IMG/VR virus record: IMGVR_UViG_3300020171_000022
Coordinates: 2,449-66,448 of that record
Length of the DNA: 64,000 nt
Direction: 5' to 3' (one strand)
From: a virus
The position numbers and the translations under genes were made by a program. Within the stretch, counting starts at the first letter, position 1. Every line of letters starts with the position of its first letter. The notes beneath the pieces were generated by a model that saw only the letters and a program-made list of their open reading frames with translations, searched no databases and was not told the DNA's origin. Below are positions 3,291-27,024 of the stretch, piece after piece.

Positions 3291-3291
3291 T

Positions 3292-5139: not shown

Positions 5140-5150
5140 GGAGGTGTATT

Positions 5151-6167: not shown

Positions 6168-6170
6168 TTA

Positions 6171-8786: not shown

Positions 8787-8787
8787 A

Positions 8788-10905: not shown

Positions 10906-12122
10906 CTACTCCCCTGAATAAATTCAGGGGCTTCTTGGGACAAGTCCCAGGCTCTGTAGTCCCAGAGCTAAAATATTTAAGGAGGCATTATAATCTCGAT
11001 GCAGACGAACATTACAAGTAGGGCATTGATGCCAACGGACAGACAAGTCTTTTTTGACTATAGTTCCGCATTGGCTACAAGTCTGACTTGTGCCTCTTGG
11101 GTTAATTGCTATAAACTGTCGAGCAGCTTCTTCCGCTTTCTGCGACAATATATTAGCAAATTGACTCCAGGCCACATCCGAAATAGATTTAGCCAGAAAA
11201 CCGTTTTGCAACATATTCTTGGTGTTAAGTTTTTCAATACAGATAATGCCAAATTTATTGACAATCTTTCTGGTTTCTTGGTGAATGAAATTATGTCGCC
11301 TATTAGAGATTCTCTCGTGGATACGAACAACAACTTTTTTAACCTTAGCTCTTTCAGAAGTGTTTTTAATTTGTTTAGACAATCTCCTTTGAGCCTTTGC
11401 AAGAGCCTTTTGGTCTGTCTTAAAAAAGCGAGGGTTCTTAATCTTCTCTTTAGTGGAAAAGGTGGCAAAATTCTCAAGTCCGACATCTATACCAACTGCT
11501 TTGGTAGTTTCAGACAATGGCTTAGGCTCATATTGAATAGAAAAACAGACATACCATTTTCCCGCTTGTTTTCTAATAATGCAAGTTTTAAGAGTTCCAA
11601 AAATAGGCCGATGTATTTTGATTTTAACAGAACCTATTTTAGAAAGTTTAAGACAATTAGTTTCTATATTCCAACCAAAGTCTGGCTGTTTATAGGTGAA
11701 ACTGTTATAACGGTCAAAATTTTTAAATCTTGGATACCCAGGGGTTTGTCCTTGTTTCACTCTACGAAAGAAATTTTGAAAGGCTTTGTCTATTCTGTCA
11801 GCCACATTTTGGAGGCTTTGCGAATAGACCTTGTTAAGAGAGGGTCTCTCTTTTTTCAAAGCAACAATAGATTTGCTTTGCTGAAAGTATCCTATGCTTT
11901 TCTTATCTTTTTCCCAGGAGTTCTTGCGTTCCTCCAGAAAATGATTATAGAGCCAGCGACACTCATCAAGAGTTTCTTGAAGAAGTCTTTGCTGTTTCTT
12001 GGTAGGATACAATCTATATTTAAGAGATTTATTCATATGTTAGATTATACCTTAAAGGAAAATAAATGTAAAGGGCAATTCATCCCCCGTTTAAAAACAG
12101 GGGCTTTCTTGCCCAATTAAAT
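10902..12122 (-). mobile_element. IS200/IS605-family non-autonomous element (tnpB only)
   Basis: left-end hairpin preceded by guide AAAG with target TTAC at 12123-12126 (- strand); right-end hairpin preceded by GAAG and ending TCAC; fits IS608-type guide/cleavage pairing. Confidence 0.85.
10924..12036 (-). CDS. tnpB: RNA-guided endonuclease TnpB
   Basis: KYRLYPT N-terminal HTH; RuvC motifs GIDVG, IEKL, RDYNASLNI; CSQC/CPTC Zn finger. Confidence 0.95.
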   Translation of the reverse strand: MNKSLKYRLYPTKKQQRLLQETLDECRWLYNHFLEERKNSWEKDKKSIGYFQQSKSIVALKKERPSLNKVYSQSLQNVADRIDKAFQNFFRRVKQGQTPGYPRFKNFDRYNSFTYKQPDFGWNIETNCLKLSKIGSVKIKIHRPIFGTLKTCIIRKQAGKWYVCFSIQYEPKPLSETTKAVGIDVGLENFATFSTKEKIKNPRFFKTDQKALAKAQRRLSKQIKNTSERAKVKKVVVRIHERISNRRHNFIHQETRKIVNKFGIICIEKLNTKNMLQNGFLAKSISDVAWSQFANILSQKAEEAARQFIAINPRGTSQTCSQCGTIVKKDLSVRWHQCPTCNVRLHRDYNASLNILALGLQSLGLVPRSP

Positions 12123-12978: not shown

Positions 12979-12989
12979 AAGGAGGAGTT

Positions 12990-13538
12990 ATGAAAAGAAA
13001 AATCAGTCTATTTCTGGTGATGGCGGTAATGATGGCGATGGTGGTATCCTGTACAGGGGTGCAGGAGAAATGGAACGCTCTCACTCCTGATGAGAAGGCT
13101 AGGGTCGTGGTTAGCGACATCCAGGCTCAACTCAATACCCTTTTTGATACCGGAAAGGCTTATGTGACGGCTAATCCAAAGTATCAAGAAAAGTGGAAAG
13201 GACAGATCGTTCCAGCTTTCGATGTGGCAAACAAAGCCCTTGCTTCTTCCATGATTCTTGCTAAAGCAGGAAAAATTACTCCAGATCAGGTTTATGCTCA
13301 AGTTCAACCTGTTCTAAATTCAGTTATTACCTTATTGGTATCTATTGGAGCAGTTAAACCTATTACAGCAGCCGTAGATATTATGATTGTTTTGGCTCTG
13401 ATTAACGGGTTGATGGGATTAGCCTATAACGCATGGTCAACCATTAATAAGGTTAAGGGTGATCAGAAGATACCGACCTGGGATGAGATTTTAGAGGAAA
13501 ATAAGAAATTACAGGACAAAATTGATGCGGAGAAATAG
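12990..13538 (+). CDS. lipoprotein with C-terminal hydrophobic helices (spanin candidate)
   Basis: signal peptide with lipobox-like VVSC; end of lysis module. Confidence 0.55.
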   Translation: MKRKISLFLVMAVMMAMVVSCTGVQEKWNALTPDEKARVVVSDIQAQLNTLFDTGKAYVTANPKYQEKWKGQIVPAFDVANKALASSMILAKAGKITPDQVYAQVQPVLNSVITLLVSIGAVKPITAAVDIMIVLALINGLMGLAYNAWSTINKVKGDQKIPTWDEILEENKKLQDKIDAEK

Positions 13539-13548
13539 TCCGTGCGGT

Positions 13549-13590
13549 GCAGGGCTTCTTTGCTACAGGCAGGGAGGCCCTTGCTTTTTT
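13549..13590 (+). terminator. Rho-independent terminator between convergent operons
   Basis: GCAGGGCTTCTTTGC/GCAGGGAGGCCCTTGC hairpin followed by T6. Confidence 0.7.
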
Positions 13591-13600
13591 CTGACATTCC

Positions 13601-13619
13601 GCTTATTGCACTGTTAGCC
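13601..13619 (+). other. attI-like recombination site of array A
   Basis: GCTTATTGCACT-GTTAGCC; core is complementary to GGCTAAC of the first attC; near-identical to the site at 25370-25388. Confidence 0.7.
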
Positions 13620-13799
13620 CTTTATTAATGAACGATAATCTTTTAATTTTTCCCTAAATCTTTGCTTCATCATATATGCATCGTAATCATAATTCCAATG
13701 ATCATATTTCCGAGCCATATAGGATTCGGCAATATCTAACAACTGGGCTAACAAGTCATTCGAGCGGACGTTTGATAGTCCACTATTTTCTTTGGTCAT
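13614..13799 (-). CDS. cassette protein, start encoded inside attC (MTKENSG leader)
   Basis: GAGG + ATG in the attC loop; TAA overlaps the GTTA core. Confidence 0.65.
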   Translation of the reverse strand: MTKENSGLSNVRSNDLLAQLLDIAESYMARKYDHWNYDYDAYMMKQRFREKLKDYRSLIKG

Positions 13800-13825
13800 A
13801 AATGCCTCTTCCGCTCAATTCTGCG

Positions 13826-14011
13826 TTATGTTGATTCTAATTTACTACCACACTCAGGACAAAAATTAACATTTACTATTGATGCAGAATTTTCTTTGTC
13901 TGGATATCCTGGTAAATATTTCTGCCAAATGGGTTGAGGATTTATTAATTCACACCAACATAACAATTCATTCGAGCGGACGTTTGATAGTCCACTATTT
14001 TCTTTGGTCAT
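13826..14011 (-). CDS. cassette Zn-finger protein with MTKENSG leader
   Basis: CWC...FCPECG; no Met outside the attC. Confidence 0.65.
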   Translation of the reverse strand: MTKENSGLSNVRSNELLCWCELINPQPIWQKYLPGYPDKENSASIVNVNFCPECGSKLEST

Positions 14012-14046
14012 AAATGCCTCTTCCGCTCAATTCTGCGTTATATGGA

Positions 14047-14268
14047 TTAAATTCTAAATGTAGGTTGATCTTTCCCTTCTCTCCAGAAAATGAATCGTTG
14101 CCACCAAAATTCTTTGGAAGCATAATTATATTCACACACAGGGCAAGTATAAAGATTTGGAGCATCTGAATTGCACCGAGGACAAAAACCAAACACAAGT
14201 CTTATCTTGCCCAAAATTCTATTCCTATTTGTTTGCAGTGACATAAAAGGAAGCCTCCGTATAATCAT
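14047..14268 (-). CDS. cassette Zn-finger protein
   Basis: CPRC...CPVC; fills the interval between two attC sites. Confidence 0.6.
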   Translation of the reverse strand: MIIRRLPFMSLQTNRNRILGKIRLVFGFCPRCNSDAPNLYTCPVCEYNYASKEFWWQRFIFWREGKDQPTFRI

Positions 14269-14308
14269 TTATTCCAGCCGATGCTAAAAAGCACGGCTGA
14301 CCTCTACG

Positions 14309-14851
14309 TTATACCTCAAAATAATGAATCTCATTACCCCATTGTTCCCAACCTTCACGTTGCTCTCTACTGAATACATCCATCTTCACGGCTTCAGGAT
14401 ACCAAAGGCTTATCATCTTATACGCAATGTCAGGCTTCCTGCTGTGCTGTCTTGCCGGTTCTCTTATCACTGTCATAAACTTACCCCTTGTCTCAGTGCT
14501 CACTGGCTGAAATTTTGGTTTGTAGAACCATGTTAAGTATTCATGAGCATACCGAACAGAGAAGGCGGGAGCTACACCGTTGCATTTATCCCATATCAGC
14601 CTTGCATGTCTGCGATAGCCTCTCTGCTCCATCGCCAGTTCGCCTATCATCAAAAACTCGTCAATGCCCCACAGAAAAACAGAATGCGTCTTTGTCGCCA
14701 TTGGGAAAACTTCCTTGTCTAAAAGCCCGAAAATTGCCATAACATCAAGCGTGGCGTAATCAAGGTTTTTCCCTTGCCGTGGCCTTGCACTTCTCAGACC
14801 CCCCTTCTTTTTAGGCCAAGGGGGATCAATAACGAAAATATTAAATGACAT
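14309..14851 (-). CDS. MT-A70 family adenine methyltransferase (cassette)
   Basis: IDPPW, HSRKP, FSRE..GW..WGNE motifs. Confidence 0.9.
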   Translation of the reverse strand: MSFNIFVIDPPWPKKKGGLRSARPRQGKNLDYATLDVMAIFGLLDKEVFPMATKTHSVFLWGIDEFLMIGELAMEQRGYRRHARLIWDKCNGVAPAFSVRYAHEYLTWFYKPKFQPVSTETRGKFMTVIREPARQHSRKPDIAYKMISLWYPEAVKMDVFSREQREGWEQWGNEIHYFEV

Positions 14852-15172
14852 AACCAGCCAATCAACCCGACCGGGAATAGTCCTGGCGGGTTATCCGCAC
14901 GTTATTTTTCCTCTTCTTCCCCTTCACACTCATGCCCAATTTCGCCTGAAGTATCCGCCCCACATTTTAGGCAGACATACCCAGGCCCATTATCGATGAA
15001 AAATGAATACATATCTATTACTTTTCCTCTTTGTCATCAATTATTCGCCATCTAAGATGATAGGCAGCTATTTTTTTGATGTCGAACAAATGCCCATTTA
15101 ATACCTTCAATTCTTTGATTAATGCCTCAATCATTGGCAGAATCTTCTCTAAGTCAAGCATCTCTCACCTCA

Positions 15173-15358
15173 TCAATCTGGCAATTTGATATTGAAATCT
15201 CCCAATGCCTGATTCACTTTCAATAACAATTCTTTTCCATTTTCTATAAATTTTGCTTGCTCTTCGTTAATCGGGTCCTGACTTATCATCCAAAGCAATT
15301 TTGTTCGACAGTCAAGAAGGGCATTAATGAGCTCTTTGATTTCCGTGTTGGTCAACAT
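15173..15358 (-). CDS. hypothetical protein
   Basis: 61 aa, RBS GGGGAG, coupled to neighbouring small ORFs. Confidence 0.55.
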   Translation of the reverse strand: MLTNTEIKELINALLDCRTKLLWMISQDPINEEQAKFIENGKELLLKVNQALGDFNIKLPD

Positions 15359-15556
15359 TTATCTCCCCACCTCCCCCCTGTAAAGATCCTTCCAGTTATC
15401 CCTTGACTCCTTTAGGTTGGCAACCTCTGCCTCCAACTCCTTGATAATTGTCTCATCCCAATCATGCTTGGCAAGCAACTCCTTGATACGTTGAGTAAGT
15501 TGTTTTACATATTCATAATTTTTAGGCTTAGGTCTCATCTCTTCCCCCTTTATGTT

Positions 15557-15766
15557 CTAAATAGGAGTAGTCTCGTTATTGTTCACATTCTTTCGCCCCC
15601 TGAATCGCAATTCAAGGGCATTAGGCGTATTTCTGTATGCATCACACCTGTCCATGCGAATATGATCTTTTAGTCCAATCAAATCAAAATCTTTCTCACC
15701 GCAAAAGGGGCAACATAACAAGTCATTAGAGCGGACGTTTGATAGCCCGCTATTTTCTTTGGTCAT
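15557..15766 (-). CDS. cassette Zn-finger protein with MTKENSG leader
   Basis: GGAGG + ATG inside attC; CPFCG...H motif. Confidence 0.65.
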   Translation of the reverse strand: MTKENSGLSNVRSNDLLCCPFCGEKDFDLIGLKDHIRMDRCDAYRNTPNALELRFRGRKNVNNNETTPI

Positions 15767-15801
15767 TCATACCTCCGCCGCTCAATTTTACGTTGGGCGG
15801 A

Positions 15802-15981
15802 TCAATCATGGACATAATCCATAATCTCTCCGGTTGAACAAACACCCTCAAGTAGTTCGGCATTAGTGGGTGTAATAATCACCGAAACATGGGGGTGACA
15901 ATTATCGCACAGGAATTTAAGTAATGGGCGGCAAATGGTGTCAAACTCGGATCTTTGTTGGTCTGTCAGTATCATGGTCAT
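15802..15981 (-). CDS. cassette hypothetical protein (59 aa; not in the ORF track)
   Basis: MTMILTDQQRSEFDTICRPLLKFLCDNCHPHVSVII...; RBS AAGGAG. Confidence 0.6.
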   Translation of the reverse strand: MTMILTDQQRSEFDTICRPLLKFLCDNCHPHVSVIITPTNAELLEGVCSTGEIMDYVHD

Positions 15982-16062
15982 CTCCTTTTAAATTAAGGTT
16001 CTGGGCAAATCGCCCAACCAGCGGGTCCAGCGGATGGCCAAGAGCCACCCCTGACCCAGACG

Positions 16063-16224
16063 TTATGTGGAACTAAATGTTGGTTCTTCATCTCTCATCA
16101 CTATTGCCGATTGTTTGCCCTCACACTCGTCTGGGCATGTATAAATATCAAATCTTGAAAGTGGGTATAGTTGTCTTCCAAAAACCATTTCCTTTCCACA
16201 TTGTGGACATTTGGGTATTTCCAT
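16063..16224 (-). CDS. cassette Zn-ribbon protein
   Basis: MEIPKCPQCG...CPDEC; RBS GGAG; stop in the core site. Confidence 0.6.
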   Translation of the reverse strand: MEIPKCPQCGKEMVFGRQLYPLSRFDIYTCPDECEGKQSAIVMRDEEPTFSST

Positions 16225-16385
16225 GGTAATCTCCATTAAAAAATGATAAGACCTCCACATAACAAGTCAATCCAGCGGACGGTCAATAAGCAGGTATCTC
16301 GGCCCAAACATCATCCTGACCTTCTGTTATGCTTTCGCATTGGGCAAGGTGCTTTCGCCACTATTGGCCGCCGCTGATCTCTACG

Positions 16386-16616
16386 TTATCTGATAAAAAT
16401 TGCGAACAATCCCCCAATGGTGCATCCAACCAGAGCAGATCCGCCACCAATGCATTGCGCAACGATTGCGGAGGTTTCTGTCGTAAGCAATAAATGTGAT
16501 CCAAGTAATGTAAAAAATGCACCAAAAATAATAATACAAGAACAAAGAAAAAGAAGAGTATGATTATCCCGACAGATAACAACGGCATCGATCAGACGCC
16601 GAATAAAACTTGTCAT
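16386..16616 (-). CDS. cassette membrane protein, start inside attC
   Basis: two hydrophobic helices; ATG in the attC loop; TAA in the core site. Confidence 0.6.
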   Translation of the reverse strand: MTSFIRRLIDAVVICRDNHTLLFLCSCIIIFGAFFTLLGSHLLLTTETSAIVAQCIGGGSALVGCTIGGLFAIFIR

Positions 16617-16655
16617 TTTTTACCATCCCTTCTCCGGCGCAGATCATGCCGGACG

Positions 16656-16934
16656 TTAGGTGTCACAAATCAATAATTTGACTTTTGCATCGACAAGTCG
16701 CCTTTTTAAAAAGCTTATATCCCGCTCGAAACGCCGGATGATATATTGCCATGCATCATGTTTGCTTTGATAAATATCCCCGATGCGAAGACATTTTTTG
16801 ATGCCATCAAGATAAAGCCATCCAGATTTAGTTGTTTTAAGTATTAAATATGGTCCCTTGGGTTCTTGGCCCTCAATAATCCAACACCTAACAATCGGCT
16901 GCACTTGAGCCTTAACAACTCTTTTAGATTTCAT
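16656..16934 (-). CDS. cassette hypothetical protein, start inside attC
   Basis: AAGGAGG-AACC-ATG in the attC loop; TAA in the core site. Confidence 0.7.
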   Translation of the reverse strand: MKSKRVVKAQVQPIVRCWIIEGQEPKGPYLILKTTKSGWLYLDGIKKCLRIGDIYQSKHDAWQYIIRRFERDISFLKRRLVDAKVKLLICDT

Positions 16935-17038
16935 GGTTCCTCCTTACCGGCCAAGTGAGCCGGAACGTTATCTGACATTAAACAATTCATTCTCAAAAAA
17001 TATATATGATATGATGATGGAGAATGGTAGGTTCATGT

Positions 17039-17668
17039 TTATCCTTTTTTAATCTGTTTATTAAGATAATAAAAGTCTAAAAGTTTTAAAAATGCCTCAA
17101 AATGGAGGGATAAATCTGTTTTAACTTCTTCCTTGAAAGACTCATCCTCTGTCCGGGGAATGTTTAGGATACGATATCTCTGGATAGGTTCTGTAATCAA
17201 TTTGCCATACCCTGCCACCTGAAGCCACATCTCCTCATAAATCCCACTCCCAGTTTTAAAATCTACAATCTCAAGGGTTCCATCAATAAACCCATATAAA
17301 TCAAAGGCCCCACCATATTTATATTCTTCCGACACCGCTTGATGTTCCATTAAAATAGGTTCAATTTTATGCTGTTTCTCCCATTCCAAATAGGACAAGA
17401 ATGAATTTTCGGCGGCATCAATCTGATTCTTGCTGTAATCCTCTGTCTCTGGTTCACGCTTCGAGAGATGGGCAAGAATCATCTCGTGGGCAAGAGTTCC
17501 AATATCAGCTTTATCGTCTCGAAATTTACTTGAATCAATTCCTGCAAGTCCTAATTTATTCGCCCATATAATCAGGGCAGGTTTTGAAAGTTGACCCGTA
17601 ACAGTCGTTACACCAACGACTATTTCCCCTGATTCAAGTTTATATCTCTGATGTGCTTTAGATTTCAT
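17039..17668 (-). CDS. PD-(D/E)XK exonuclease (phage recombination nuclease)
   Basis: GVTTV, GTLAHE, GAFD...VDFKTG, QVAGY motifs. Confidence 0.85.
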   Translation of the reverse strand: MKSKAHQRYKLESGEIVVGVTTVTGQLSKPALIIWANKLGLAGIDSSKFRDDKADIGTLAHEMILAHLSKREPETEDYSKNQIDAAENSFLSYLEWEKQHKIEPILMEHQAVSEEYKYGGAFDLYGFIDGTLEIVDFKTGSGIYEEMWLQVAGYGKLITEPIQRYRILNIPRTEDESFKEEVKTDLSLHFEAFLKLLDFYYLNKQIKKG

Positions 17669-17676
17669 CTATCCTC

Positions 17677-17925
17677 CTAAAAGGGAACATTTTGTTCATC
17701 ATCCTTCAGTGATTGCTTATTCTGTTTTCCACCAAGAATATCCATTAAAAATCCTTTAAATTTCTCAAGGTGCTCATGCTTAATCGTGAGATTTTGATAC
17801 TTTTTGTTTTCCTTGAAGGTTGTAATTTTCTTTAAACTTACAAACGAATATTCTCTGCCATCCTTCTTGAAAGTAGCATCCTCATCCCATTCATATTCAA
17901 TTGTATCAAGGTGTAGCCTTAGCAT
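17677..17925 (-). CDS. small putative ssDNA-binding protein
   Basis: acidic DDEQNVPF C-terminus; located between ERF and exonuclease. Confidence 0.5.
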   Translation of the reverse strand: MLRLHLDTIEYEWDEDATFKKDGREYSFVSLKKITTFKENKKYQNLTIKHEHLEKFKGFLMDILGGKQNKQSLKDDEQNVPF

Positions 17926-18599
17926 TATTTCTTCTCCTCTGCAAATTGACTTTTTAGATGATCTTTGTAGGCCACCAGTTCGTTAAACTCTACCGCTGGT
18001 AATAGTTTTATGTCCGCTCCATGCTTCTTCCACCAGTTTTGTAATTCAAAAATGCTTTTAATATCATGCATTCGATTTTGATATTCTTCAAACGTTGAAG
18101 AGGCGGGCGGAGGCTGGTCACTGGAATCTTTTCTTATCCCCTTCGTCTCTTTTTTTAACTTATTCTTTGTCTCAATTCCCCTTCCCACAGCCCCCTCACC
18201 GTCATCATCTTCGGGCGCAATCCCCGCAATCGCAGCCAAAGTATACCTACGGGCATAGGTTAGGGCAGACCCAAGACTTTGGGGATCTTCTGATGCAGTC
18301 CAACCCTCCCCCTGTTTCTGTCTCATCGGATTAATGGGATATATTCCTGAAATGGATTCCCCACTAATATGAGAAAGGATTGTTTCAAGGTATAATTTCC
18401 CTTCGATCATTTTTGTAATCTGGATGACTGCAAGACCATTATCCGTCAATGGTTTTCGACAGGCTTCCCAGACGGAGGCAAGGTCGGCATATGAAGCCTT
18501 GAAATATGGGTTTTCAGAGTCTTTTATGGCTCCCTGAATTATGGATTGTGCTTTACTAAGAGCTTCGGTTAATTTACTTAACGCCTTACTCTCTTCCAT
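17925..18599 (-). CDS. erf: ERF-family single-strand annealing protein
   Basis: NPYFKASYADL and GSALTYARRYTLAAIAGIAPEDDDG motifs. Confidence 0.92.
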   Translation of the reverse strand: MEESKALSKLTEALSKAQSIIQGAIKDSENPYFKASYADLASVWEACRKPLTDNGLAVIQITKMIEGKLYLETILSHISGESISGIYPINPMRQKQGEGWTASEDPQSLGSALTYARRYTLAAIAGIAPEDDDGEGAVGRGIETKNKLKKETKGIRKDSSDQPPPASSTFEEYQNRMHDIKSIFELQNWWKKHGADIKLLPAVEFNELVAYKDHLKSQFAEEKK

Positions 18600-19119
18600 C
18601 TTCTTCCTCCTTTCTTATTTTTTCGTGAAGTTCACGATGGCAATTTGAGCAAAGAGAAATACATTTTTTTAATTCTTTTAATGTTCGTTCTGTCGGTTTA
18701 CTTGAAAAAATTTTTCCGCTCGGAGTTTCTTTTTGTCCGGGATTTATATGGTGAAGATCAATTGCACAAAATGAACGATTATATCCGCACACTGAACAAT
18801 GAATAAGATCGAGTTTATTTAATATTTGCATCCAATATTCTTTGTTTTTTTTGTAAAAATTAGCATTATGTTTTTTTTGAATCTCTCTGTTTCCAGGTAT
18901 GGAAAGCCACATATTTCTATGTTTAAGACGACCCTTTAAATTACAATCCTTACATTTTTTGGGATAACGGCGCTTGGGTTCATATCTTTTATATTTTTTA
19001 ATAAAAAATTCATTTAATGATTTTATTTCTCCGCACTTTGTGCATCTTTTCTCGGTCAAAGTAATACGACTTGCATTTAGGACACCTTCTAACATCGGAA
19101 CATCTGGGATACCATCCAT
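18586..19119 (-). CDS. HNH-type homing endonuclease
   Basis: KRCTKCGEIK, CSVCG, DLHHINP, LCSNCHRELH. Confidence 0.8.
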   Translation of the reverse strand: MDGIPDVPMLEGVLNASRITLTEKRCTKCGEIKSLNEFFIKKYKRYEPKRRYPKKCKDCNLKGRLKHRNMWLSIPGNREIQKKHNANFYKKNKEYWMQILNKLDLIHCSVCGYNRSFCAIDLHHINPGQKETPSGKIFSSKPTERTLKELKKCISLCSNCHRELHEKIRKEEEDGRE

Positions 19120-19273
19120 GACCGCACCTCAGACATTTGACACTTTGAATTTTAATCTTCATGGTTTAATTGTATCCCTTATAAGTAAGTTTGTCAAGTT
19201 TTATTTTTCCATCGAAAATGCCCGCCTCCGGATCCCCTCTTCTAAGTTCCGGTTAAAGCCAGGCGGGGATGGC

Positions 19274-19498
19274 TTATTTGTCCCACTCTGCACGTTTAGA
19301 AATTTCAGCCTCGATTAGGGGCAATATTCTTTTTATTTCCCGAATTCTAATTTCAAAAGAGCTTAACAAACCCTTTCCATCCTTTAAGGATTCTTGCCAA
19401 CCCTCTAGGGTTAAATACCCATATTGATCTTTTTTCCAATGCCAACTGAAATGCCACGAGGAATCTATGATGTCATAAATTTCAGATTCTAAGCTCAT
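19274..19498 (-). CDS. hypothetical protein
   Basis: 74 aa in the leftward operon, RBS AGGGGAG. Confidence 0.55.
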   Translation of the reverse strand: MSLESEIYDIIDSSWHFSWHWKKDQYGYLTLEGWQESLKDGKGLLSSFEIRIREIKRILPLIEAEISKRAEWDK

Positions 19499-19510
19499 CT
19501 CCCTGTCTCC

Positions 19511-19699
19511 TTATTTCTTAATCTTCAAGGTCGTCTCTAAACCCGTTATCCTTCCTGTCAAACTCCCAATGTCTTTATCGTTCTGGTATACCATTTTTCT
19601 TATCTCATCTGCTTTCCAATCTCGCCAAATATAGCCTGCTTCAAAACTTGACAACATAAGGGCCAAGATAAATATTATCCAAACAATTGTCTCTCTCAA
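19511..19699 (-). CDS. small membrane protein
   Basis: N-terminal transmembrane helix. Confidence 0.55.
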   Translation of the reverse strand: MRETIVWIIFILALMLSSFEAGYIWRDWKADEIRKMVYQNDKDIGSLTGRITGLETTLKIKK

Positions 19700-19886
19700 G
19701 TTCCATCACCTCCAGCGCTAAATTTAATTCCTGAAGCTTCAGGGCTATCTCCGCCTGCATCTCAAGCAGAACCCCAATATCCCCCTGGAAAGACTGATCG
19801 ATTTGGAGGCTTCTCCAGGTGAAGCCTATTGCAACCCCCAGAAGCAATATCAGGAATATTTTTATAACTTTCTCCCACATAAACAT
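19641..19886 (-). CDS. small membrane protein
   Basis: N-terminal transmembrane helix plus coiled coil; RBS AAGGAGG. Confidence 0.5.
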   Translation of the reverse strand: MFMWEKVIKIFLILLLGVAIGFTWRSLQIDQSFQGDIGVLLEMQAEIALKLQELNLALEVMELERDNCLDNIYLGPYVVKF

Positions 19887-19964
19887 TCAACCTCCTTAAT
19901 AGCCATAAGATAAGTTTGAGCTTCCGATAATGGATGAAATTTTTGATTCTAAACATCAAACGAA

Positions 19965-20312
19965 TCATTCTATTCCCTCGTCGGTGGGTTCATATGGGGC
20001 AACTTTTTTCTTTCTCCCTTTTTTCGGTTTGACATAAAAAGGACTTTTATCTTCGGAAAGACTTTTTAACGTTTCAGGAAACTTTTCGGCATGTTCTACG
20101 GGAGGAACATCCCGAAATCTTCCAGAATCAGAAGTTCCTTTTGCCGCCTCAATTTCTGCCTTCTTCCGCCTATTTCTTCTTGGCTTCGGAGGTTCCGGGC
20201 GATTGATTTCGCCGATGAGAACTTTGGTTTCGATGGCATGAAGAGCAATTGCAAGAGACCTTTGCGCCTCCAATATAAGCCGCTTGATTTCCGATAAGTT
20301 AATCGTTTCCAT
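19965..20312 (-). CDS. hypothetical basic protein
   Basis: 115 aa, RBS AAGGAGG. Confidence 0.65.
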   Translation of the reverse strand: METINLSEIKRLILEAQRSLAIALHAIETKVLIGEINRPEPPKPRRNRRKKAEIEAAKGTSDSGRFRDVPPVEHAEKFPETLKSLSEDKSPFYVKPKKGRKKKVAPYEPTDEGIE

Positions 20313-20712
20313 GATTTACCTCCTTTTTATGTTTTGTGATATGGTAATTATTACATCTTGGGCACTGATAAATCTTAAAGCTCGTCCAGTCCGCCGTTTT
20401 TTGACCATACTTCATTTTGGTAGCAATTGCGGTGACAGCATCAATCTCTGAATCGTAACTTTGCTTCTTCCCGCAGAGGCCTTTTGATAGAATCTCTTTT
20501 ACCTCCTTCCTGGGCAGGCATCCTTGACTTTAGACACCTGCCCCTTTGCTAGCCTCCCCCTTCTGCCGACTCTCACGACTTGAAGGTTAACCCCTCCGTT
20601 GCCTTATCGGCTGTCCCCTGCCCCTGCCCCGAAGGTCGATGAGGTCTTATGTATGGACACGGAGGTGATGGTCGTTTATATGCCTTTTGCCTTCCCTTTT
20701 CCTTTTGTTTAC

Positions 20713-20741
20713 ATTAAAGCATATTTTTTACCTGTTGTCAA
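20713..20741 (-). promoter_or_regulatory. sigma70-type leftward promoter
   Basis: TTGACA-17 bp-TTTAAT with extended TG; faces the recombination operon and array A. Confidence 0.65.
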
Positions 20742-20807
20742 GAGAAATCTTCACTTTTTAAAAAATAATTCAACAAGGGTATTGACAAGAACTAAAAAGT
20801 ATGATAT

Positions 20808-20993
20808 ATGAATTACATGAAACAATTAGAATTGGCTAAAAAGATAGGCATTTCAAGGACTTATTTGAACGGTATCTTGAATGAAAAAAGGATTCCTGGA
20901 ATTGAATTAGCAAAAAGAATAAGTAAAATTACCGGCAAAGATTTCTTTGAGATGAGAAAAGATATAAAAAAATTGTTAAAGGAGCTACTGTAG
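20808..20993 (+). CDS. Cro/CI-type HTH regulator
   Basis: QLELAKKIGISRTYLNGILNEKRIPG; TTGACA at 20782 just upstream, divergent from the leftward promoter. Confidence 0.85.
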   Translation: MNYMKQLELAKKIGISRTYLNGILNEKRIPGIELAKRISKITGKDFFEMRKDIKKLLKELL

Positions 20994-20994
20994 A

Positions 20995-21819
20995 ATGAAT
21001 GAACTTCAAACTCAAATAAACCTTAAACAAAAATTAGATAAGATCGATAAACAGGTCTACGGAGAAGTGTTTGAGGGTTTCTGTGGATCAAGGTTGAGAA
21101 TCTTAATTGCAATGTGGGAGAAGGGGGAGGTGATTATTTCGGATTTTAGGGGAGGTAAAATCCGAACTTGGAATAAATTATCCATTGAAACTGGTAGGAG
21201 TGATAAATCTCTCAAACGCTGGCATGATCTTTATAAGAAATGTCCTGATAAGGAAAAATATATAAGAATCGCAGAAAAGCAAGCCGAGGAATGGACGGAA
21301 AAGGTGTTAAAACTTGGCTGGGAAGCCCTTCTATTGTCCGGTTCAAAGGAATGGTATACACCAAAGGAATATATCGATTCGGTTTATGAAGTCCTATCCG
21401 AAATAGATTTAGACCCCGCCTCATGTAAAGAAGCTAATCGAACCGTTAAAGCCAAGAAATTTTATTCAAAAGAAGATGATGCTCTCTCTTGTTCATGGAT
21501 AGGTAAGATATTTTTAAATCCACCATACGGCAATGACGGCCCTCCTTTTGTTGAAAAGTTAATTCAAGAAATTAAAGCCGGAAATGTTATCGAAGCTATC
21601 TTACTGGTCAATTCCAGGGCCACAGATGCAGAATGGTATCAACCTCTTTATAATGGACTTATTTGTTTTACGGATCACCGTATAGATTTTGATTCACCTG
21701 ATGAAAAAAATACGAGTTCGACTCATGGCAGTTGTTTTATTTATTTTGGGCCTAATGAAAAAAAATTTGCTGATTCATTTTCAAAACATGGAAGCATTTT
21801 AAAGAGATTTAATGGGTAA
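20995..21819 (+). CDS. phage DNA N6-adenine methyltransferase
   Basis: EWYTP, DLDPAS, FLNPPY motifs; extra N-terminal helical domain. Confidence 0.88.
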   Translation: MNELQTQINLKQKLDKIDKQVYGEVFEGFCGSRLRILIAMWEKGEVIISDFRGGKIRTWNKLSIETGRSDKSLKRWHDLYKKCPDKEKYIRIAEKQAEEWTEKVLKLGWEALLLSGSKEWYTPKEYIDSVYEVLSEIDLDPASCKEANRTVKAKKFYSKEDDALSCSWIGKIFLNPPYGNDGPPFVEKLIQEIKAGNVIEAILLVNSRATDAEWYQPLYNGLICFTDHRIDFDSPDEKNTSSTHGSCFIYFGPNEKKFADSFSKHGSILKRFNG

Positions 21820-22210
21820 TATAAAGAATCAAAAAGCACATTCTGAAATAAGGGTGGATTGGGAATTTTTAAACGATTGTTTTCCAAGAAATATTCGGGT
21901 TACAGATTTGGATGGTTTTATCGAAATAAATTCCAGGGTTTTAATTTTGGAACATAAACAAAAAAATCAAGAAATTCCATATGGACAGGCAATGGCGTTT
22001 ACGAAGATAATAGAAAAAAATAAAATTAAAGTGATTGTTTTCTGGGCAGATTTAGATAATATGGGAAATATAGTTAAACTTTATCAAACAAGAATTTTTG
22101 ATTCAACAGATTCAAATGTTTCGATAAAAAATGATTATTGGCCAAATATCCAGAATTTAAAAGACAAAATTAAAGCATGGGTAAAATGGGCGGAGGAACA
22201 AGAAAAATAA
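21812..22210 (+). CDS. putative PD-(D/E)XK nuclease-fold protein
   Basis: TDLDG...ILEHK...GQ pattern. Confidence 0.55.
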   Translation: MGNIKNQKAHSEIRVDWEFLNDCFPRNIRVTDLDGFIEINSRVLILEHKQKNQEIPYGQAMAFTKIIEKNKIKVIVFWADLDNMGNIVKLYQTRIFDSTDSNVSIKNDYWPNIQNLKDKIKAWVKWAEEQEK

Positions 22211-22524
22211 GTGACTTTATCATTCTACGGAAGGCTATCGGGATAACCCATGAATCCCATAACCACGGTTTATCGCCTAAAATTAAGGGGTTATAATCTC
22301 GCCGATATTGCAAGGGAGGTAAAAACATCACGGCAACTTGTGCGGGCAACCATTTATACGAATCCGCAGAGGGGAAAGATAATGATGAAGATCAGGAAAA
22401 GGATTGAGGAAATCCTGAATAATTAAAGGAGGTAACATGTTCTTAACCGGACTCATCATCGGCCTATTTATTGGAGCATTTATAGGCATCCTCACGGTGT
22501 GCATATTGAGGGTGAGCAACGACG

Positions 22525-22731
22525 ATGCCTAAATGCTTCTTCTGCCAGGCTCTGATCGATCCCCTCACTTCGAGATGCATAAATGGTCATTCAATCGATG
22601 TCGCCTACGTTTTGAGAGTTCGAGCCGAACAGGCCAAGCATACCATTAAACGCCATACCTTCTGGGGAGACTATAAAACTCGGAAGAGGGGAAGGAAGAA
22701 AAAATTAGATAAACTTTTAGAAAAGGATTAA
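22525..22731 (+). CDS. hypothetical protein
   Basis: 68 aa, CxxC...CxxxH, basic tail. Confidence 0.5.
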   Translation: MPKCFFCQALIDPLTSRCINGHSIDVAYVLRVRAEQAKHTIKRHTFWGDYKTRKRGRKKKLDKLLEKD

Positions 22732-23023
22732 GGGAGATCATCGAGGGCATCTACTTCTAGTGAGTTGCGGCCAATAGGGTGAAAACCAAAATAAGAGATT
22801 GCATAAGACAATCCATATGAGTGAAAGGCTCTTCTATTGGCCGTCAACTCCAGTGATTTGTTATCTTGCTTGACTCAATAGGAATGACAAAAAGTGCTAA
22901 CCCGAATAACACTGACAAATCATTCGGCTGACGGGCAGCAAACCGGAACCGTAATAGTTTCGGGGTTAAGCAAGATAACGTAGAGGTCAGCGGCGCTTTG
23001 GGTGTCCGCTGGAGTGATTGGTT

Positions 23024-23209
23024 ATGCCAGATATAATCCAAGAGATCCACCAAATCGAAGAAATTGCGTGGCAATGGTTTGCAGAGATATATCCACATGA
23101 ATGCTATGCCAGTTGGCCTGACCGATTCTGGGACTTCTTCCATATCAAATGTCCTAATGTGACACGTGAACAGATGGAACGGATACTTTCAGAAACGGAT
23201 GATGCATAA
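23024..23209 (+). CDS. cassette hypothetical protein
   Basis: ATG within GTTATGC box; TAA within GCATAAC. Confidence 0.6.
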   Translation: MPDIIQEIHQIEEIAWQWFAEIYPHECYASWPDRFWDFFHIKCPNVTREQMERILSETDDA

Positions 23210-23280
23210 CGTAGAGGTCAGCGGCGCTTTGGGTGTCCGCTGGAGTGATTGGTTAGGCGAAAACCACGAAAGGAGATTAT

Positions 23281-23469
23281 ATGGAAGATAACGAAAAATG
23301 TACAGTGCAATGTGACTCAAGGGTTGGTTCAGTATGTATGAAATATGCAAAAATGATTATGCGAAATAAAGAATCAAATAAATATGACCATGTTAATTCC
23401 ACAGAAGTAGGGATAAAAGTCCCGCAATGTTTATTTGCCGATAGTAAACGGCAAGGACACGTTGCCTAA
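23281..23469 (+). CDS. cassette Cys-rich protein
   Basis: RBS AAGGAG; stop in GCCTAAC. Confidence 0.65.
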   Translation: MEDNEKCTVQCDSRVGSVCMKYAKMIMRNKESNKYDHVNSTEVGIKVPQCLFADSKRQGHVA

Positions 23470-23525
23470 CGTAGAAATCAGCGGGAGCCTTTGGCAATCC
23501 GCTGGATTGACTGGTTAGGTGATTT

Positions 23526-23744
23526 ATGACCTTTGAATTATTTAATTGCACCCAAGTTCTTTTACGAGAGATTGCCATGCCCAAAGTAAGGCAAAAAGAT
23601 ATTTCTGCTACCTATGCTCTTGCGCTGCGGAGTTCCGATCCAACTGATTGGAAATCTGTAAATGAGGCAATCATAAAAAGATGGAGCCTATCTGGGTTAA
23701 AGCGAATTAAAGATATGGCTTGGTCTGGAAAATGTTTCACCTAA
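23526..23744 (+). CDS. cassette hypothetical protein
   Basis: 72 aa; RBS AGGTGA overlaps the attC box; stop in ACCTAAC. Confidence 0.7.
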   Translation: MTFELFNCTQVLLREIAMPKVRQKDISATYALALRSSDPTDWKSVNEAIIKRWSLSGLKRIKDMAWSGKCFT

Positions 23745-23818
23745 CGCAAAGGTCAGCGGCGTGTCGCACGTCCGCTGGAGTGACTTGTTATATTTTTTAT
23801 TAAAGTGAGGGAAGAAAA

Positions 23819-23965
23819 ATGAAATGCACCGATTGCGGCAAAGAACTTTCCAAGGAACAAGAAAAACATAATGAAGAAATAGCAGTAAAATCAGGAACAA
23901 AGAAATTAGATATGTGTGGTAATTGTTGGGCAGATTATTGCCGGCACGCTGAAACGGGTCAATGA
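23819..23965 (+). CDS. cassette Zn-finger protein (48 aa; not in the ORF track)
   Basis: MKCTDCGKEL...MCGNCW. Confidence 0.6.
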   Translation: MKCTDCGKELSKEQEKHNEEIAVKSGTKKLDMCGNCWADYCRHAETGQ

Positions 23966-24031
23966 ATATAACGTGCGGATAACCCGCCGCTATTGGCGGT
24001 CGGGTTGATTGACTGGTTATACGGAGGTCTT

Positions 24032-24184
24032 ATGTCTTTATTTTCTGATGAAGAGATTTGTATCGGTTGTAAATATGCCATGTTTCACGATTGTTGCCAT
24101 AAATTTTGTTTTTGTGATGAAAACCATGAAAGTGATAGAGACCATGTTTGTGGCAAGTGCCCATATAAAATTAATTCCACATAA
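24032..24184 (+). CDS. cassette Cys-rich protein
   Basis: RBS GGAGG; eight Cys in 50 aa; stop in ACATAAC. Confidence 0.6.
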   Translation: MSLFSDEEICIGCKYAMFHDCCHKFCFCDENHESDRDHVCGKCPYKINST

Positions 24185-24254
24185 CGTAGAGATCAGCGGT
24201 GCTTTAAGCATCCGCTGGAGTGATTGGTTATCTGATCTTTATACGGGAGGATAT

Positions 24255-24425
24255 ATGACTGATAAAGAAAAATTGGTGGGGATACGACAAGCATTGAAAG
24301 ACATAATAGCCTATCCTAAAGAAGGGGGTTATCCTTCCGAGGTAGTTTACGATAAGTTTGCGTATAAACGTATCGTGAAATCGTATCGTGATGGGCTTAA
24401 ACAAGTTCTTCGTGACTACAGATAA
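24255..24425 (+). CDS. cassette hypothetical protein
   Basis: RBS GGAGG; MTDKEKL...; stop in AGATAAC. Confidence 0.65.
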   Translation: MTDKEKLVGIRQALKDIIAYPKEGGYPSEVVYDKFAYKRIVKSYRDGLKQVLRDYR

Positions 24426-24451
24426 CGATGAAGATAAGCGGGCGGGCACAA

Positions 24452-25048
24452 ATGATGAATGAAAATAAAAGGGCTATTTCCGCTCCGCTTGATCGCCTTG
24501 TTATACCTCATGGGGGTTTCCGGTGTATCGTGGCCGATCCGCCGTGGCATTATGGCGTATGGGGCGGGGGTAGCGGAAGAGGATCGCGAGGTCTTGTTTT
24601 GGATGGGAAAAGTGTTCCGATGCCTTATCCAACTATGACAATTGATGAAATCGCCGCACTCCCCGTTGATAGATGCGCCGCAAATAATTGCGACCTGTAT
24701 CTATGGACAACGCAGAAATACTTGCCAGATGGTTTCAGGATTATGCAAATATGGGGCTTCCGGTATTGTCAAACCTTGACTTGGTGTAAGATTCCGCGAG
24801 GACTTGGGCAAGGCGGATTGTTCTGTCCGACAACAGAATTTATACTATTGGGGCGCAAAGGAACAATGCCACAGGGTAAGCGGCGTATTGATTCGACATG
24901 GTGGCAAGTCAAACGCCCGCATAACTCGCACAGCACAAAGCCTGAATTTTTTCAAGATTTGATTGAACAGGTGAGCAATGAGCCACGGCTGGAATTGTTT
25001 GCCCGCCGTTTTCGTTTAGGATGGACGGTATGGGGTAATGAGGTATAA
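24452..25048 (+). CDS. MT-A70 family adenine methyltransferase (cassette, start inside attC)
   Basis: ADPPW, YPTM, HSTKP, ELFAR..GW..WGNE; no Met between the attC and DPPW. Confidence 0.9.
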   Translation: MMNENKRAISAPLDRLVIPHGGFRCIVADPPWHYGVWGGGSGRGSRGLVLDGKSVPMPYPTMTIDEIAALPVDRCAANNCDLYLWTTQKYLPDGFRIMQIWGFRYCQTLTWCKIPRGLGQGGLFCPTTEFILLGRKGTMPQGKRRIDSTWWQVKRPHNSHSTKPEFFQDLIEQVSNEPRLELFARRFRLGWTVWGNEV

Positions 25049-25129
25049 CGTAGAGGTCAGCCGCACTTTTGAGTGTCGGCTGGAGTGACTGGTTATACGT
25101 TTTTTAATTTTATCATGGAGGTTAAAAAC

Positions 25130-25375
25130 ATGGCAACACAATTATCAAGAGAGAAAGTAGCACAAGCATGGTGCAAGCCTACAACGAGTCATAAAGTGAT
25201 GGATGTAGAGTTGGCAGAAGCCTTCGCCGAGATTCTTGATGAAATATGGTCTAAGCCCTGGCTCGGAAATGCCACTACGGACGAATTGCTGACTGAAATC
25301 AGAACACGCATTGAGATGGATGGTAAACTTCAATACCGAACTATTGATGTAGTTTTTACATCTCATTCTGTATAA
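25130..25375 (+). CDS. cassette hypothetical protein
   Basis: RBS GGAGG; stop in GTATAAC of the attI-like site. Confidence 0.7.
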   Translation: MATQLSREKVAQAWCKPTTSHKVMDVELAEAFAEILDEIWSKPWLGNATTDELLTEIRTRIEMDGKLQYRTIDVVFTSHSV

Positions 25376-25388
25376 CAGTGTAATAAGC
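25370..25388 (-). other. attI-like recombination site of array B
   Basis: - strand GCTTATTACACT-GTTATAC; matches 13601-13619 at 15 of the first 16 nt. Confidence 0.7.
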
Positions 25389-25623: not shown

Positions 25624-27024
25624 ATGATAATAAAAGCTGATTCTCGACATATCCCATTATCTGACCAGTCCGTGAACTGCATTATCACATCTCCACCTTA
25701 TTGGTCTTTGCGGAAATATGACATTCCCGATTTGATTTGGGATGGGGATGAAAAATGTGAACATAATTTTGATTTGAAGAGTTTGGAAATCCCTACTGGA
25801 ACTGGTGGAAATTGGCAACAAGCAAATAACGGTCCTGGATTGGCAATGGGTAAAGATCAGACTCGCTTTAAAGGTGATTGCAGAGAAGCAAATAAAGTCG
25901 ACACGGTAAAGATTCAACAAGGGTTCTGTCTTAAATGTAGTGCCTGGCGTGGTCAACTTGGCCTTGAACCCACCATTGAACTCTACCTGAAACATCTTCT
26001 TCAGATTATGGATGAGTGTAAGAGAGTGCTGAGGGATGATGGGACGATGTTTATCAACTTAGGCGACTCCTATTATGGTGGTAAGGGCATGAGTTCTCAG
26101 GCATGGTCAACAGATCATCAGGATCGCGAAACTCTTCAAAAGTCTCAACATCAAATTTGTGGAATGGGTGAAGCAAGACCAGCAGATTTACCGCAAGGAA
26201 ATATTCTTCCTAAATCCCTCTGCCTCATTCCTGAACGGTTCGCTATTGAGATGGTCAACCAGGGATGGATACTCAGAAATAAGATAATATGGAAAAAGCC
26301 AAATTGTATGCCTTCGTCAGCAAAAGATAGATTTACGGTCGACTGGGAAGGAATTTTCTTCTTTGTGAAGAGTAAGAAATATTGGTTTGAGCAACAGTAT
26401 GAACCTTTTTTGACAGAAAGTAATGCCGAGCGTCCACGAATGGGACAGGGAAATCAAACTATTTACAATCAAAAAAGGCGGGGTTTAATAAAAGGCAATG
26501 TTCAAATAGGAAGCGAACAGAGACACTCCGCCAATATAAATTACGGCTTAAAGGGCCGTAACCGTCGCTGTGTCTGGACAATAAGCACGGCCGCTTACTC
26601 CGAGGCCCATTTTGCAACCTTCCCAGAAGCCCTTGTCGAACCGATGATTAGGGCAGGATGTCCTAAATTCGTTTGTAATAAGTGTGGGAAGGCGAGGGAG
26701 AAGATTGTTGATGTTGAATATATTAAAAATAGACCGTCGGCGGGCAACGATCCACGAAGTAGGAATGAGGATAAACTGGCTGGAGGTAGGGGACCAGGTG
26801 GATATCGTGGGAATAATCTTCTTAAACAAACTAAAGAAATTGGCCTCACCGATTGCGGTTGTAACGCTGGTTTCCGGCCTGGAATAGTCCTTGATCCATT
26901 CTGCGGAAGTGGAACAGTCTTAAGGGTAGCTGAGAGGTTAGGCAGGCAGGTTATAGGGATTGACTTGGGATATGAGGAATTAGCAGATAAGAGAATATCT
27001 TGGAATCAGATGGAGTTAATTTAA
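25624..27024 (+). CDS. DNA methyltransferase (N4-cytosine/N6-adenine family)
   Basis: ITSPPYW, HFATFP, VLDPFCGSGT. Confidence 0.92.
   Translation: MIIKADSRHIPLSDQSVNCIITSPPYWSLRKYDIPDLIWDGDEKCEHNFDLKSLEIPTGTGGNWQQANNGPGLAMGKDQTRFKGDCREANKVDTVKIQQGFCLKCSAWRGQLGLEPTIELYLKHLLQIMDECKRVLRDDGTMFINLGDSYYGGKGMSSQAWSTDHQDRETLQKSQHQICGMGEARPADLPQGNILPKSLCLIPERFAIEMVNQGWILRNKIIWKKPNCMPSSAKDRFTVDWEGIFFFVKSKKYWFEQQYEPFLTESNAERPRMGQGNQTIYNQKRRGLIKGNVQIGSEQRHSANINYGLKGRNRRCVWTISTAAYSEAHFATFPEALVEPMIRAGCPKFVCNKCGKAREKIVDVEYIKNRPSAGNDPRSRNEDKLAGGRGPGGYRGNNLLKQTKEIGLTDCGCNAGFRPGIVLDPFCGSGTVLRVAERLGRQVIGIDLGYEELADKRISWNQMELI

Follow-up and report, generated by a model that had tools for sequence, protein, structure and literature searches.

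This analysis concerns two arrays of small genes bounded by attC-like hairpins in an uncultured tailed phage from groundwater. The phage is represented by a linear IMG/VR record of 66,448 nt (IMGVR_UViG_3300020171_000022) with a CheckV completeness estimate of 58%, and we analysed a stretch of 64,000 nt of it, hereafter called the window. The textbook integron is a bacterial device with a single promoter, from which genes without promoters of their own point away, and a set of clustered attC sites without an integron integrase (CALIN) is defined by IntegronFinder as at least two attC sites close together with no intI nearby. The PHROGs profiles assign primase, large terminase, head-tail adaptor and two TnpB-like genes in the window. 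The transcription units diverge, with leftward genes running from ~20.3 to 13.6 kb and rightward genes starting from ~20.6 kb, and the two arrays, which we call A and B (Table 1), therefore lie in two divergent operons, in what is probably the early region of the phage. An Rfam scan of the window at gathering thresholds gave no families, and megablast of 13-26 kb against the GenBank phage collection gave no match.

attC sites and gene strand

The original prediction described 17 imperfect palindromes of 55-135 bp with attC anatomy. A repeat finder missed most of these sites because the hairpin arms carry bulges, and a first loose script scan gave chance hits on both strands with only the top scores clustering in the arrays. 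Two covariance models were used for detection. The first, R1, was built from 14 window hairpins aligned on the coding strand, and it recovered 15 strong sites (51-72 bits, E<=1.1e-10), one of them outside its training set, as well as two weak sites, A8 and A9, with the next match at E 0.13. The second, R2, was built from 25 published attC sites and zero window sequences, with a class 1 integron, a Vibrio integron, a Shewanella integron and phage TJE1 as its sources. The published integrons were taken from Tables 1 and 2 of Qi et al. 2023 (PMC9892861) and comprise a Vibrio anguillarum phage with IntIA and an array (L011), Shewanella phage M16-3, in which an integron integrase is annotated and which has an array and a CALIN (L012), a P1 isolate carrying class 1 cassettes (L013) and the virulent phage TJE1 (L149). 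On the 64 kb window R2 matched exactly the 17 R1 sites (E 4e-9 to 0.016) and none else at E<=1, so that all 17 of the predicted palindromes are recovered by a model of published attC, with match lengths of 54-134 nt. Nine sites lie on the minus strand at 13746-16972 and eight on the plus strand at 22974-25098, with neighbours 54-860 nt apart and no intI, which is the arrangement of a CALIN. R1 also recognised the published integrons, where its best match reached 39.6 bits (E 3.4e-7).

The fold was evaluated in an alignment of 14 sites. With an R helix of 4 bp and an L helix of 10 bp counted, pairing reaches 89.8% of cells versus 77.5 +/- 1.9 in shuffles (0 of 500 reach the observed value), six pairs have changes on both sides, and pairing falls to 27-45% when partners are slid by 1-3 columns. 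Folding of three sites as single-stranded DNA gave the R helix, an internal loop of 8-9 nt and the L stem, with z of -2.4 to -4.3. The 3' arm carries T and G bulges, 7 nt apart, that vary little or not at all among the 14 aligned sites. The sites have the L'/L'' boxes, the unpaired central spacer and the extrahelical bases on the L'' arm of the bottom strand that are expected of an attC hairpin. For the attC of aadA7, a section of Nivina et al. 2016 (PMC5027507) names extrahelical bases G16 and T23 near L'', and the window bulges match these in place. A likeness to the aadA-type top strand that had been proposed for one example held up as well, since the plus strand of the sites at 13746 and 13958 (A1 and A2) shares 31 invariant columns with the top strand of three class 1 attC sites.

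Degenerate attC-like hairpins also lie at the promoter-proximal edge of each array, at 16975-17037 and 22756-22866, and these may be decayed outermost sites; the latter scores 16.4 bits with R1 (E 0.13) and is not matched by R2. Just before B1, at 22862-22979, there is an imperfect palindrome of ~118 nt (GTTATCTTGCTT...AAGCAAGATAAC) that has complementary cores and no ORF and resembles an empty cassette body.

Table 1. Arrays, attC sites, anchors, cassettes and neighbouring genes of the window (bits and E-values are those of models R1 and R2; RBS, ribosome-binding site; aa, amino acids).
Feature	Position	Strand	Remarks
Array A	13601..16972	-	nine cassettes and terminal anchor half-site; genes leftward to anchor
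Array B	22974..25388	+	eight cassettes and terminal anchor half-site; genes rightward to anchor; mirror image of array A
attC A9	16886..16972	-	long, RBS and ATG in loop; R1 22.2 bits, E 0.0037; R2 26.3 bits, E 0.0011
attC A8	16574..16660	-	long, weakest match; R1 E 0.028, R2 E 0.016; cores pair with neighbouring cassette ends
attC A7	16257..16390	-	core-to-core 127 nt; R1 66.1 bits; R2 49.8 bits, E 4e-9
attC A6	16012..16067	-	R1 57.9 bits; R2 E 0.0043
attC A5	15713..15797	-	start codon in loop; R' = CAAC; R1 59.7 bits; R2 41.1 bits
attC A4	14848..14906	-	R1 58.2 bits; R2 33.2 bits; T and G bulges on 3' arm (single-strand fold)
attC A3	14259..14313	-	degenerate R'', ATTA instead of GTTA; R1 61.8 bits; R2 E 0.0075
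attC A2	13958..14042	-	start codon in loop; aadA-like; R1 60.6 bits; R2 44.9 bits
attC A1	13746..13830	-	near-identical to A2; R1 59.4 bits; R2 45.1 bits
Anchor of array A	13601..13616	-	TAA↓C, 6-nt spacer, L'-like box, no second arm
attC B1	22974..23027	+	47-nt core-to-core stretch identical in B2; R1 66.7 bits; R2 32.6 bits
attC B2	23205..23258	+	absent from R1 training set; R1 65.4 bits; R2 34.3 bits
attC B3	23465..23520	+	R1 and R2
attC B4	23740..23793	+	R1 and R2
attC B5	23967..24022	+	R1 and R2; fold z -3.26
attC B6	24180..24233	+	R1 and R2
attC B7	24421..24506	+	long site; R1 51 bits; R2 41.7 bits
attC B8	25044..25098	+	R1 72.3 bits; R2 37.4 bits; fold z -4.18
Anchor of array B	25373..25388	+	same half-site motif as array A
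Cassette A4 cargo, MT-A70 DNA methyltransferase, 180 aa	14309..14851	-	PF05063, E 1.2e-12, 48.6 bits, above cut-off
Cassette B7 cargo, MT-A70 DNA methyltransferase, 198 aa	24452..25048	+	PF05063, E 3.9e-23
Cassette B8 cargo, conserved 81-aa protein	25130..25375	+	318 homologues
Cassette A5, multi-gene	14902..15792	-	~five small co-oriented ORFs; end cores match at 6/7 positions
Cassette B1, 231 nt	22979..23209	+	missing in contig from second groundwater sample
TnpB-like gene (phrog_506)	10924..12036	-	E 9.7e-115; outside both arrays
TnpB-like gene (phrog_506)	38059..39174	-	E 1.4e-52; outside both arrays
PD-(D/E)XK nuclease-like	17039..17668		Pfam, weak match
ERF recombinase	17925..18599		Pfam
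Dam methylase	20995..21819		Pfam
N6_N4 methylase	25624..27024		Pfam

The canonical cassette gene lies on the top strand upstream of its own attC, is promoterless and is read from the cassette promoter Pc. This is not the layout of the window, where all cassette genes are on the bottom strand: the attC bottom strand is the coding strand at 17 of 17 sites. R1, which represents the window coding strand, matches published attC always opposite to the annotated cassette genes, on the minus strand where genes are on plus (as for its three matches in TJE1, which is canonical) and the reverse for the Shewanella array and the dfrA cassette. The predicted inversion of every gene relative to its site thus stands when both models and annotated integrons are scored by strand.

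We also counted gene strands across arrays by taking the longest ORF between neighbouring sites and requiring a >1.3-fold excess over the other strand for a call. This rule was applied by hand for the window, the other viral loci and the annotated integrons, and by script, for gaps of 100-1,600 nt, for the bacterial and archaeal loci. In the window 10 of 15 intervals carry the gene on the same strand as the attC bottom strand (one opposite, four ambiguous), and the other viral loci gave 16 same, one opposite and six ambiguous (total 23). The three annotated integrons gave one same, 15 opposite and three ambiguous (total 19), and among the matches listed for bacterial and archaeal loci with the same attC family there were none same, 36 opposite and six ambiguous (total 42). 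The lone opposite call in the window, at 24180-24506, sets a 73-aa frame starting with GTG against a 56-aa gene with a strong RBS and a stop on the core TAA, and both MT-A70 Pfam matches are on the co-oriented strand. Promoter-like sites show no enrichment (39 versus 34.5 +/- 6.2 expected). Among the arrays sampled, an all-reversed layout is found in phages only: other viral contigs show it again, and the arrays of bacteria with the same attC family are canonical, which agrees with the proposal of a cassette pool adapted to phages. Insertion of canonical cassettes by their top strand was rejected as an explanation because the orientation of a gene versus its own attC is unaffected by the direction of insertion. 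Reversal is thus a property of the cassettes and not of insertion, and the phage pool is therefore distinct from the bacterial pool.

The pairing of two arrays is not peculiar to the window. A 62% relative (L216) has arrays at 2852-4004 on minus and 7353-8892 on plus around core genes, and an unrelated complete phage of 93.8 kb (G001) has them at 16.9-18.6 kb on plus and 90.4-92.6 kb on minus, which makes the paired arrangement recurrent.

Cassette ends, anchors and turnover

When a circular cassette is opened in its R' core, one half of the core ends up at the far end of the cassette, and the ends of one cassette should therefore be complementary, which the two cores of one site need not be. 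This is the pattern of the window: in 13 of 17 cassettes, with 10 distinct cores, the 7-bp cores at the two ends are perfect complements, as had been predicted, and complementary cores within a single site occur in one of 17. In 100,000 trials with shuffled ends the mean was 2.06 (sd 1.33), and the highest count was 9. The heptamers in this test were read by eye; an automatic, partly mis-parsed test over six arrays gave 21/31 cassette-wise versus 3/37 site-wise. As far as the letters of the cassette ends go, this pairing is the classic footprint of cassette integration.

The attC consensus appears in the sections of Nivina et al. 2016 (PMC5027507) that deal with it as 5'-RYYYAAC-3' for R' and 5'-GTTRRRY-3' for R''. 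AAC is present in 14 of 14 aligned sites and GTT in 13 of 14 (A3 has ATTA), and the window 7-mers are RNNTAAC/GTTANNY-like, looser than RYYYAAC at positions 2-3. The core pattern places the crossover in one of two cores, and neither the choice between them nor the point inside the invariant TAAC/GTTA can be resolved from it. The predicted footprint of a G↓TT crossover (the arrow marks the crossover) thus stands as regards the complementary cores, and the exact position is taken from where IntI is known to cut R' on the bottom strand, AA↓C, as given in part of the same source. There is one ORF in 16 of 17 cassettes, the cassette at 15792-14902 having about five, and in 14 of 17 the ORF ends on the TAA of the core TAA↓C, so that both the mostly single small genes and the stops overlapping the core were described correctly.

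Both arrays close on their promoter-distal side with TAA↓CAGTGYAATAAGC. This motif has two occurrences in the window, both at array ends, against 0.09 expected, and consists of an R box, a spacer of 6 nt and an L'-like box, the second arm being absent. It reads as a putative attI-like simple site, placed where attI would be in top-strand terms. In three further contigs, L008, L150 and L204, a cassette likewise ends in the 16-nt motif. Of 36 viral stretches that matched it, only L008 and L150 have attC alongside; the other 34 were set aside as chance matches, since they have no attC beside them and their number is near chance expectation. Beyond the anchor of array A there is a strong bidirectional terminator at 13551-13581 (14-bp stem, T runs on both sides), which lies between the convergent gene at 12975-13538 and the array end and is conserved in sequence in L204.

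Relatives show gain, loss and replacement of cassettes, as expected of a mobile array. The metagenome contig L204, in which the protein of the neighbouring gene is 87% identical, shares both flanks of array A (77.8% versus window 17970-17043 and 80.3% versus window 13616-13551). Between these flanks the window has 3,426 nt with nine cassettes and L204 has 1,272 nt with two. From 13616, which is the T of the anchor TAAC, homology sets in again, so that the one flank junction that could be mapped, at the anchor end, falls on the core. A second relative (L241, 91% over the available part) has other cassettes directly behind the same neighbouring gene. No R1 site was present in L206 and L211 (~80%), nor within 10 kb in four viral relatives with ~50% identity in the neighbouring gene. 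In the viral contigs L003 and L007, flanks with identities of 99.93% (7,131 nt) and 98.7% (479 nt) enclose 456 nt versus 2,845 nt of different cassettes.

A contig from a second groundwater study (run X2) joins 22974 to 23206, so that cassette B1 (231 nt) is missing; the shorter side of the joint has 191 letters. This deletion likewise falls on the core. One further X2 contig leaves the window right after the A9 core, at 16971.

Source of the integrase and competing explanations

No tyrosine recombinase had been noticed in the window, and searches of the whole 66,448-nt record with TIGR02249 and PF00589 gave no match. The TIGR02249 search at a looser E-value matches in 14 of 14 control genomes, and it would therefore detect ordinary tyrosine recombinases too. 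A complete integron, with intI adjoining attI, is thus not present in this incomplete record. Five other viral records have the same attC family (R2 finds 18 sites in them, and one is a complete phage with two arrays on opposite strands), and none of the five has an IntI-like match at E<=0.001, although three are rated 100% complete.

The same attC family is also found in cells. A pattern scan of bacteria and archaea returned at least 120 stretches from very diverse assemblies, and in the 80 loci that were analysed R1 gave 135 matches at E<=0.001, on one strand per locus. Thus this hairpin family serves canonical integrons in cells and reversed arrays in phages. Four of five bacterial genomes with the family have an IntI above the NCBIfam cut-off (265 bits), and possible suppliers of IntI therefore exist among such bacteria.

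A separate observation concerns Virus Rctr41k (L014, KX853513), from a methane-oxidising/anammox enrichment. Its locus at 4680-10113 carries an IntI-like gene that shares 39% identity with the IntI of the Shewanella phage and is co-oriented with the downstream genes, which have canonical top-strand attC-like sites after them, such as 8421-8567. It looks like a complete phage integron, one absent from Table 1 of Qi et al. 2023.

Taken together, we think it likely that the window holds two arrays of genuine integron gene cassettes in a tailed phage, a phage-side integron that would use IntI supplied by the cell. The cassette unit would be a folded attC followed by one small gene that usually stops on the TAA of the next core, both arrays would grow from the same attI-like half-site at the promoter-distal end, and they would be read through as part of the two divergent phage operons. 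We infer that the catalyst is IntI of the infected cell, which would insert, excise and swap cassettes, presumably during infection. Why the genes are reversed may have to do with folding. On the non-template strand the bottom strand could extrude its hairpins more readily, and if replication starts between the arrays, the bottom strand would also be on the lagging-strand template of both, which could again favour extrusion.

More tentative, and in our estimate slightly short of an even chance, is a wider reading in which a pan-viral pool of reversed cassettes, attC first and gene second, would be kept apart from the bacterial pool by orientation. Host IntI would mobilise these cassettes during infection into attI-like anchors that end early operons, and folding, and with it turnover, would be greatest with the bottom strand on the non-template strand, which is probably the lagging-strand template as well. 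Host cassettes captured by accident would be antisense and silent.

With 17 CALINs reported by Qi et al. 2023 (PMC9892861), clusters of attC in phages are already published. That survey of 10,705 phage genomes gave 3 complete integrons, one In0 element and the 17 CALINs, with a minimum of two sites per CALIN, noted five methyltransferase cassettes, and found that five of six phage attC sites recombine with attI1 by IntI1; its text is silent on gene strand versus attC strand. Like the phage CALINs of Qi et al., the window has attC clusters without intI, as found in virulent phages, with DNA methyltransferases among the cargo. It differs from them in having 17 of 17 cassettes reversed, mirror-image arrays of nine and eight, and a common anchor half-site. 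Polaribacter phage P12002L has one weak R2 match (21.2 bits, E 0.013) on the gene strand between two methyltransferase genes, so that the reversed layout may be present, uncommented, in one published phage. What is new here would be the reversed gene layout, the paired arrays and the anchor. In a comparison based on listings and abstracts, with PH101 and the remaining Qi CALINs outside it, we found no published description of reversed phage cassettes.

The window shares with classical integrons, both mobile and sedentary chromosomal, the attC anatomy, a variable loop, cassette-wise core complementarity, single-gene cassettes and variable order. Unlike them it has no intI and no Pc, its genes are on the bottom strand, and transcription runs toward the attI-like end, with the consequence that a cassette newly inserted at the anchor would be the operon's last gene and not its first. 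Reversed-gene cassettes in bacterial arrays are mostly toxin-antitoxin genes with their own promoters. In these bacterial cases, as in the window, the gene occupies the unusual strand with respect to its attC, yet they are single exceptions in canonical arrays, whereas in the window and the other viral arrays examined every cassette is reversed and promoters are not in excess. A passage of Nivina et al. 2016 (PMC5027507) speaks of only 'few exceptions' to cassettes being promoterless. A further parallel is offered by part of the preprint of Loot and co-workers (bioRxiv 10.1101/2022.09.11.507474), which deals with the insertion of cassettes away from att sites, at attG (a loose 5'-GWT-3' context on either strand), and with single attC sites that have no integron integrase (SALINs). 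In this process, as outlined there, IntI acting in trans can seed cassettes in integron-free DNA, a route to small CALINs. Unlike attG, a specific 16-nt half-site anchors both window arrays and recurs in L008, L150 and L204.

Three other explanations were weighed. An integron integrase of the phage's own could lie in the missing ~42% of its genome, which would make this a complete phage-borne integron and not one that depends on the host. The completeness estimate leaves room for such a gene, and complete integrons are known from phages (Table 1 of Qi et al. 2023, PMC9892861), to which the IntI-like gene beside canonical attC in Rctr41k may be added. We nevertheless regard it as unlikely, since none of the five viral records with this attC family has an IntI-like match, the three complete ones included, and since canonical intI abuts attI whereas the DNA adjoining both anchors has no recombinase gene. 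Less probable still is that the arrays are fossils, formerly integrated by IntI and now immobile, in which hairpins are kept as intergenic structures of RNA or DNA, for example to stabilise transcripts or to serve as translation-start modules. The sites do lie in 5' leaders, where they provide stop codons and Shine-Dalgarno-like GGAG, and at least five of them also contain the start codon; A3, A8, A9 and the flanking hairpins are degenerate. A fossil array is hard to reconcile with flanks that are 99.93% identical and enclose wholly different cassette sets (L003/L007), with a second sample that differs by exactly one cassette, or with 13 of 17 core pairs that are still perfect and T and G bulges that are invariant or nearly so in 14 sites.

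Hairpin-bounded mini-elements of the IS200/IS605 family exist, and with two TnpB-like genes in the window the hairpins could be a convergent repeat, for example IS200/IS605-type ends tied to TnpB, or sites of an unknown phage recombinase, and not integrase substrates at all. This we consider very improbable, because R2 with published attC only matches all 17 sites and nothing else, A1 and A2 align base by base on the plus strand with class 1 attC, the same family forms bacterial arrays in which four of five genomes have IntI above cut-off, and the TnpB genes lie outside both arrays; IS200/IS605-type hairpins were rejected on these grounds.

Several points weigh against two genuine cassette arrays served by a host IntI, which is still the reading we prefer. 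With the record 58% complete, an intI of its own could lie in the missing part. The sequences in R2 are independent of the window, but its alignment was laid out by R1 and its register therefore leans on the window model. A3, A4, A5 and B5 are without perfect core pairing, and R'' of A3 is degenerate. There is only weak evidence on which attC, the upstream or the downstream one, moves together with a gene: two pairs of homologous cassettes have the greater likeness in the upstream site (0.87 versus 0.58 and 0.75 versus 0.53), one remote pair favours the downstream attC and one is neutral. The X2 joint has 50 ambiguous letters, corresponding to the identical attC B1 and B2, and homologous recombination or replication slippage could therefore also explain the deletion. 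Many joints between attC sites in run X1 have sides of just 20-42 letters and are unreliable; opposite-strand joints at 14311/24503 and 14312/25088 arise because the 5' halves of A3, B7 and B8 are identical, and none of the X1 joints was counted as recombination. In all, evidence for recombination is indirect and comes from comparing relatives.

What sets the window apart is that the same sites and the same integration footprint serve genes all facing the other way. If the preferred reading is true, phages would trade accessory genes among themselves by means of a host recombinase, and the methyltransferases would suggest anti-restriction functions among the traded genes. Cassettes could then arise in both orientations, which bears on the unsolved origin of cassettes.

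Cargo and leader sequences

Cargo of known function is limited to the two MT-A70 DNA methyltransferases; the others are small proteins, several with CxxC pairs. Pfam and PHROGs searches of the small cassette proteins gave nothing above curated cut-offs beyond the two MT-A70 matches. The A4 and B7 methyltransferases are 26% identical to each other, and each cassette is followed by a site (14259-14313 and 25044-25098, respectively) with the same ~20-nt 5' half.

The tblastn search of window cassette proteins against the attC-bearing loci examined gave no cassette homologue. Homologues found later are one each for 15173-15358 and 14047-14268, in metagenome contigs, and those of the B8 gene. The B8 protein has 14 invariant columns in an alignment of 25 of its 318 homologues, and a 70%-identical homologue in the viral contig L191 also lies between complementary cores. 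Its homologues occur in 19 viral loci, in which R1 gave six matches at E<=0.05 within five loci. By eye L191 contains a more divergent reversed array, and R1 therefore undercounts divergent sites.

Several attC sites also contribute coding sequence. The sites at 13746-13830, 13958-14042 and 15713-15797 are three near-identical 78-nt attC with an RBS and ATG in the loop, and the 18 N-terminal residues that they encode are the same (MTKENSGLSNVRSN...) and continue into three unrelated bodies, with similarity ending at the R'' core. A leader related to that of these sites is present in another phage (L008, 1454-1536). The A9 leader, MKSKR..AQVQP.V, is likewise common to cassettes with different bodies in at least two other viral contigs (L006 at ~7500 and L010 at ~2750), and the A9 DNA is 88-90% identical over ~95 nt in three other viral records. 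Finally, in regard to cassette B1, the start codon of its gene is inside the R'' core (GTTATGC, window 23010-23030) and the GGAG of the L'' box is ~10 nt upstream, so attC B1 would itself supply the translation start signals.

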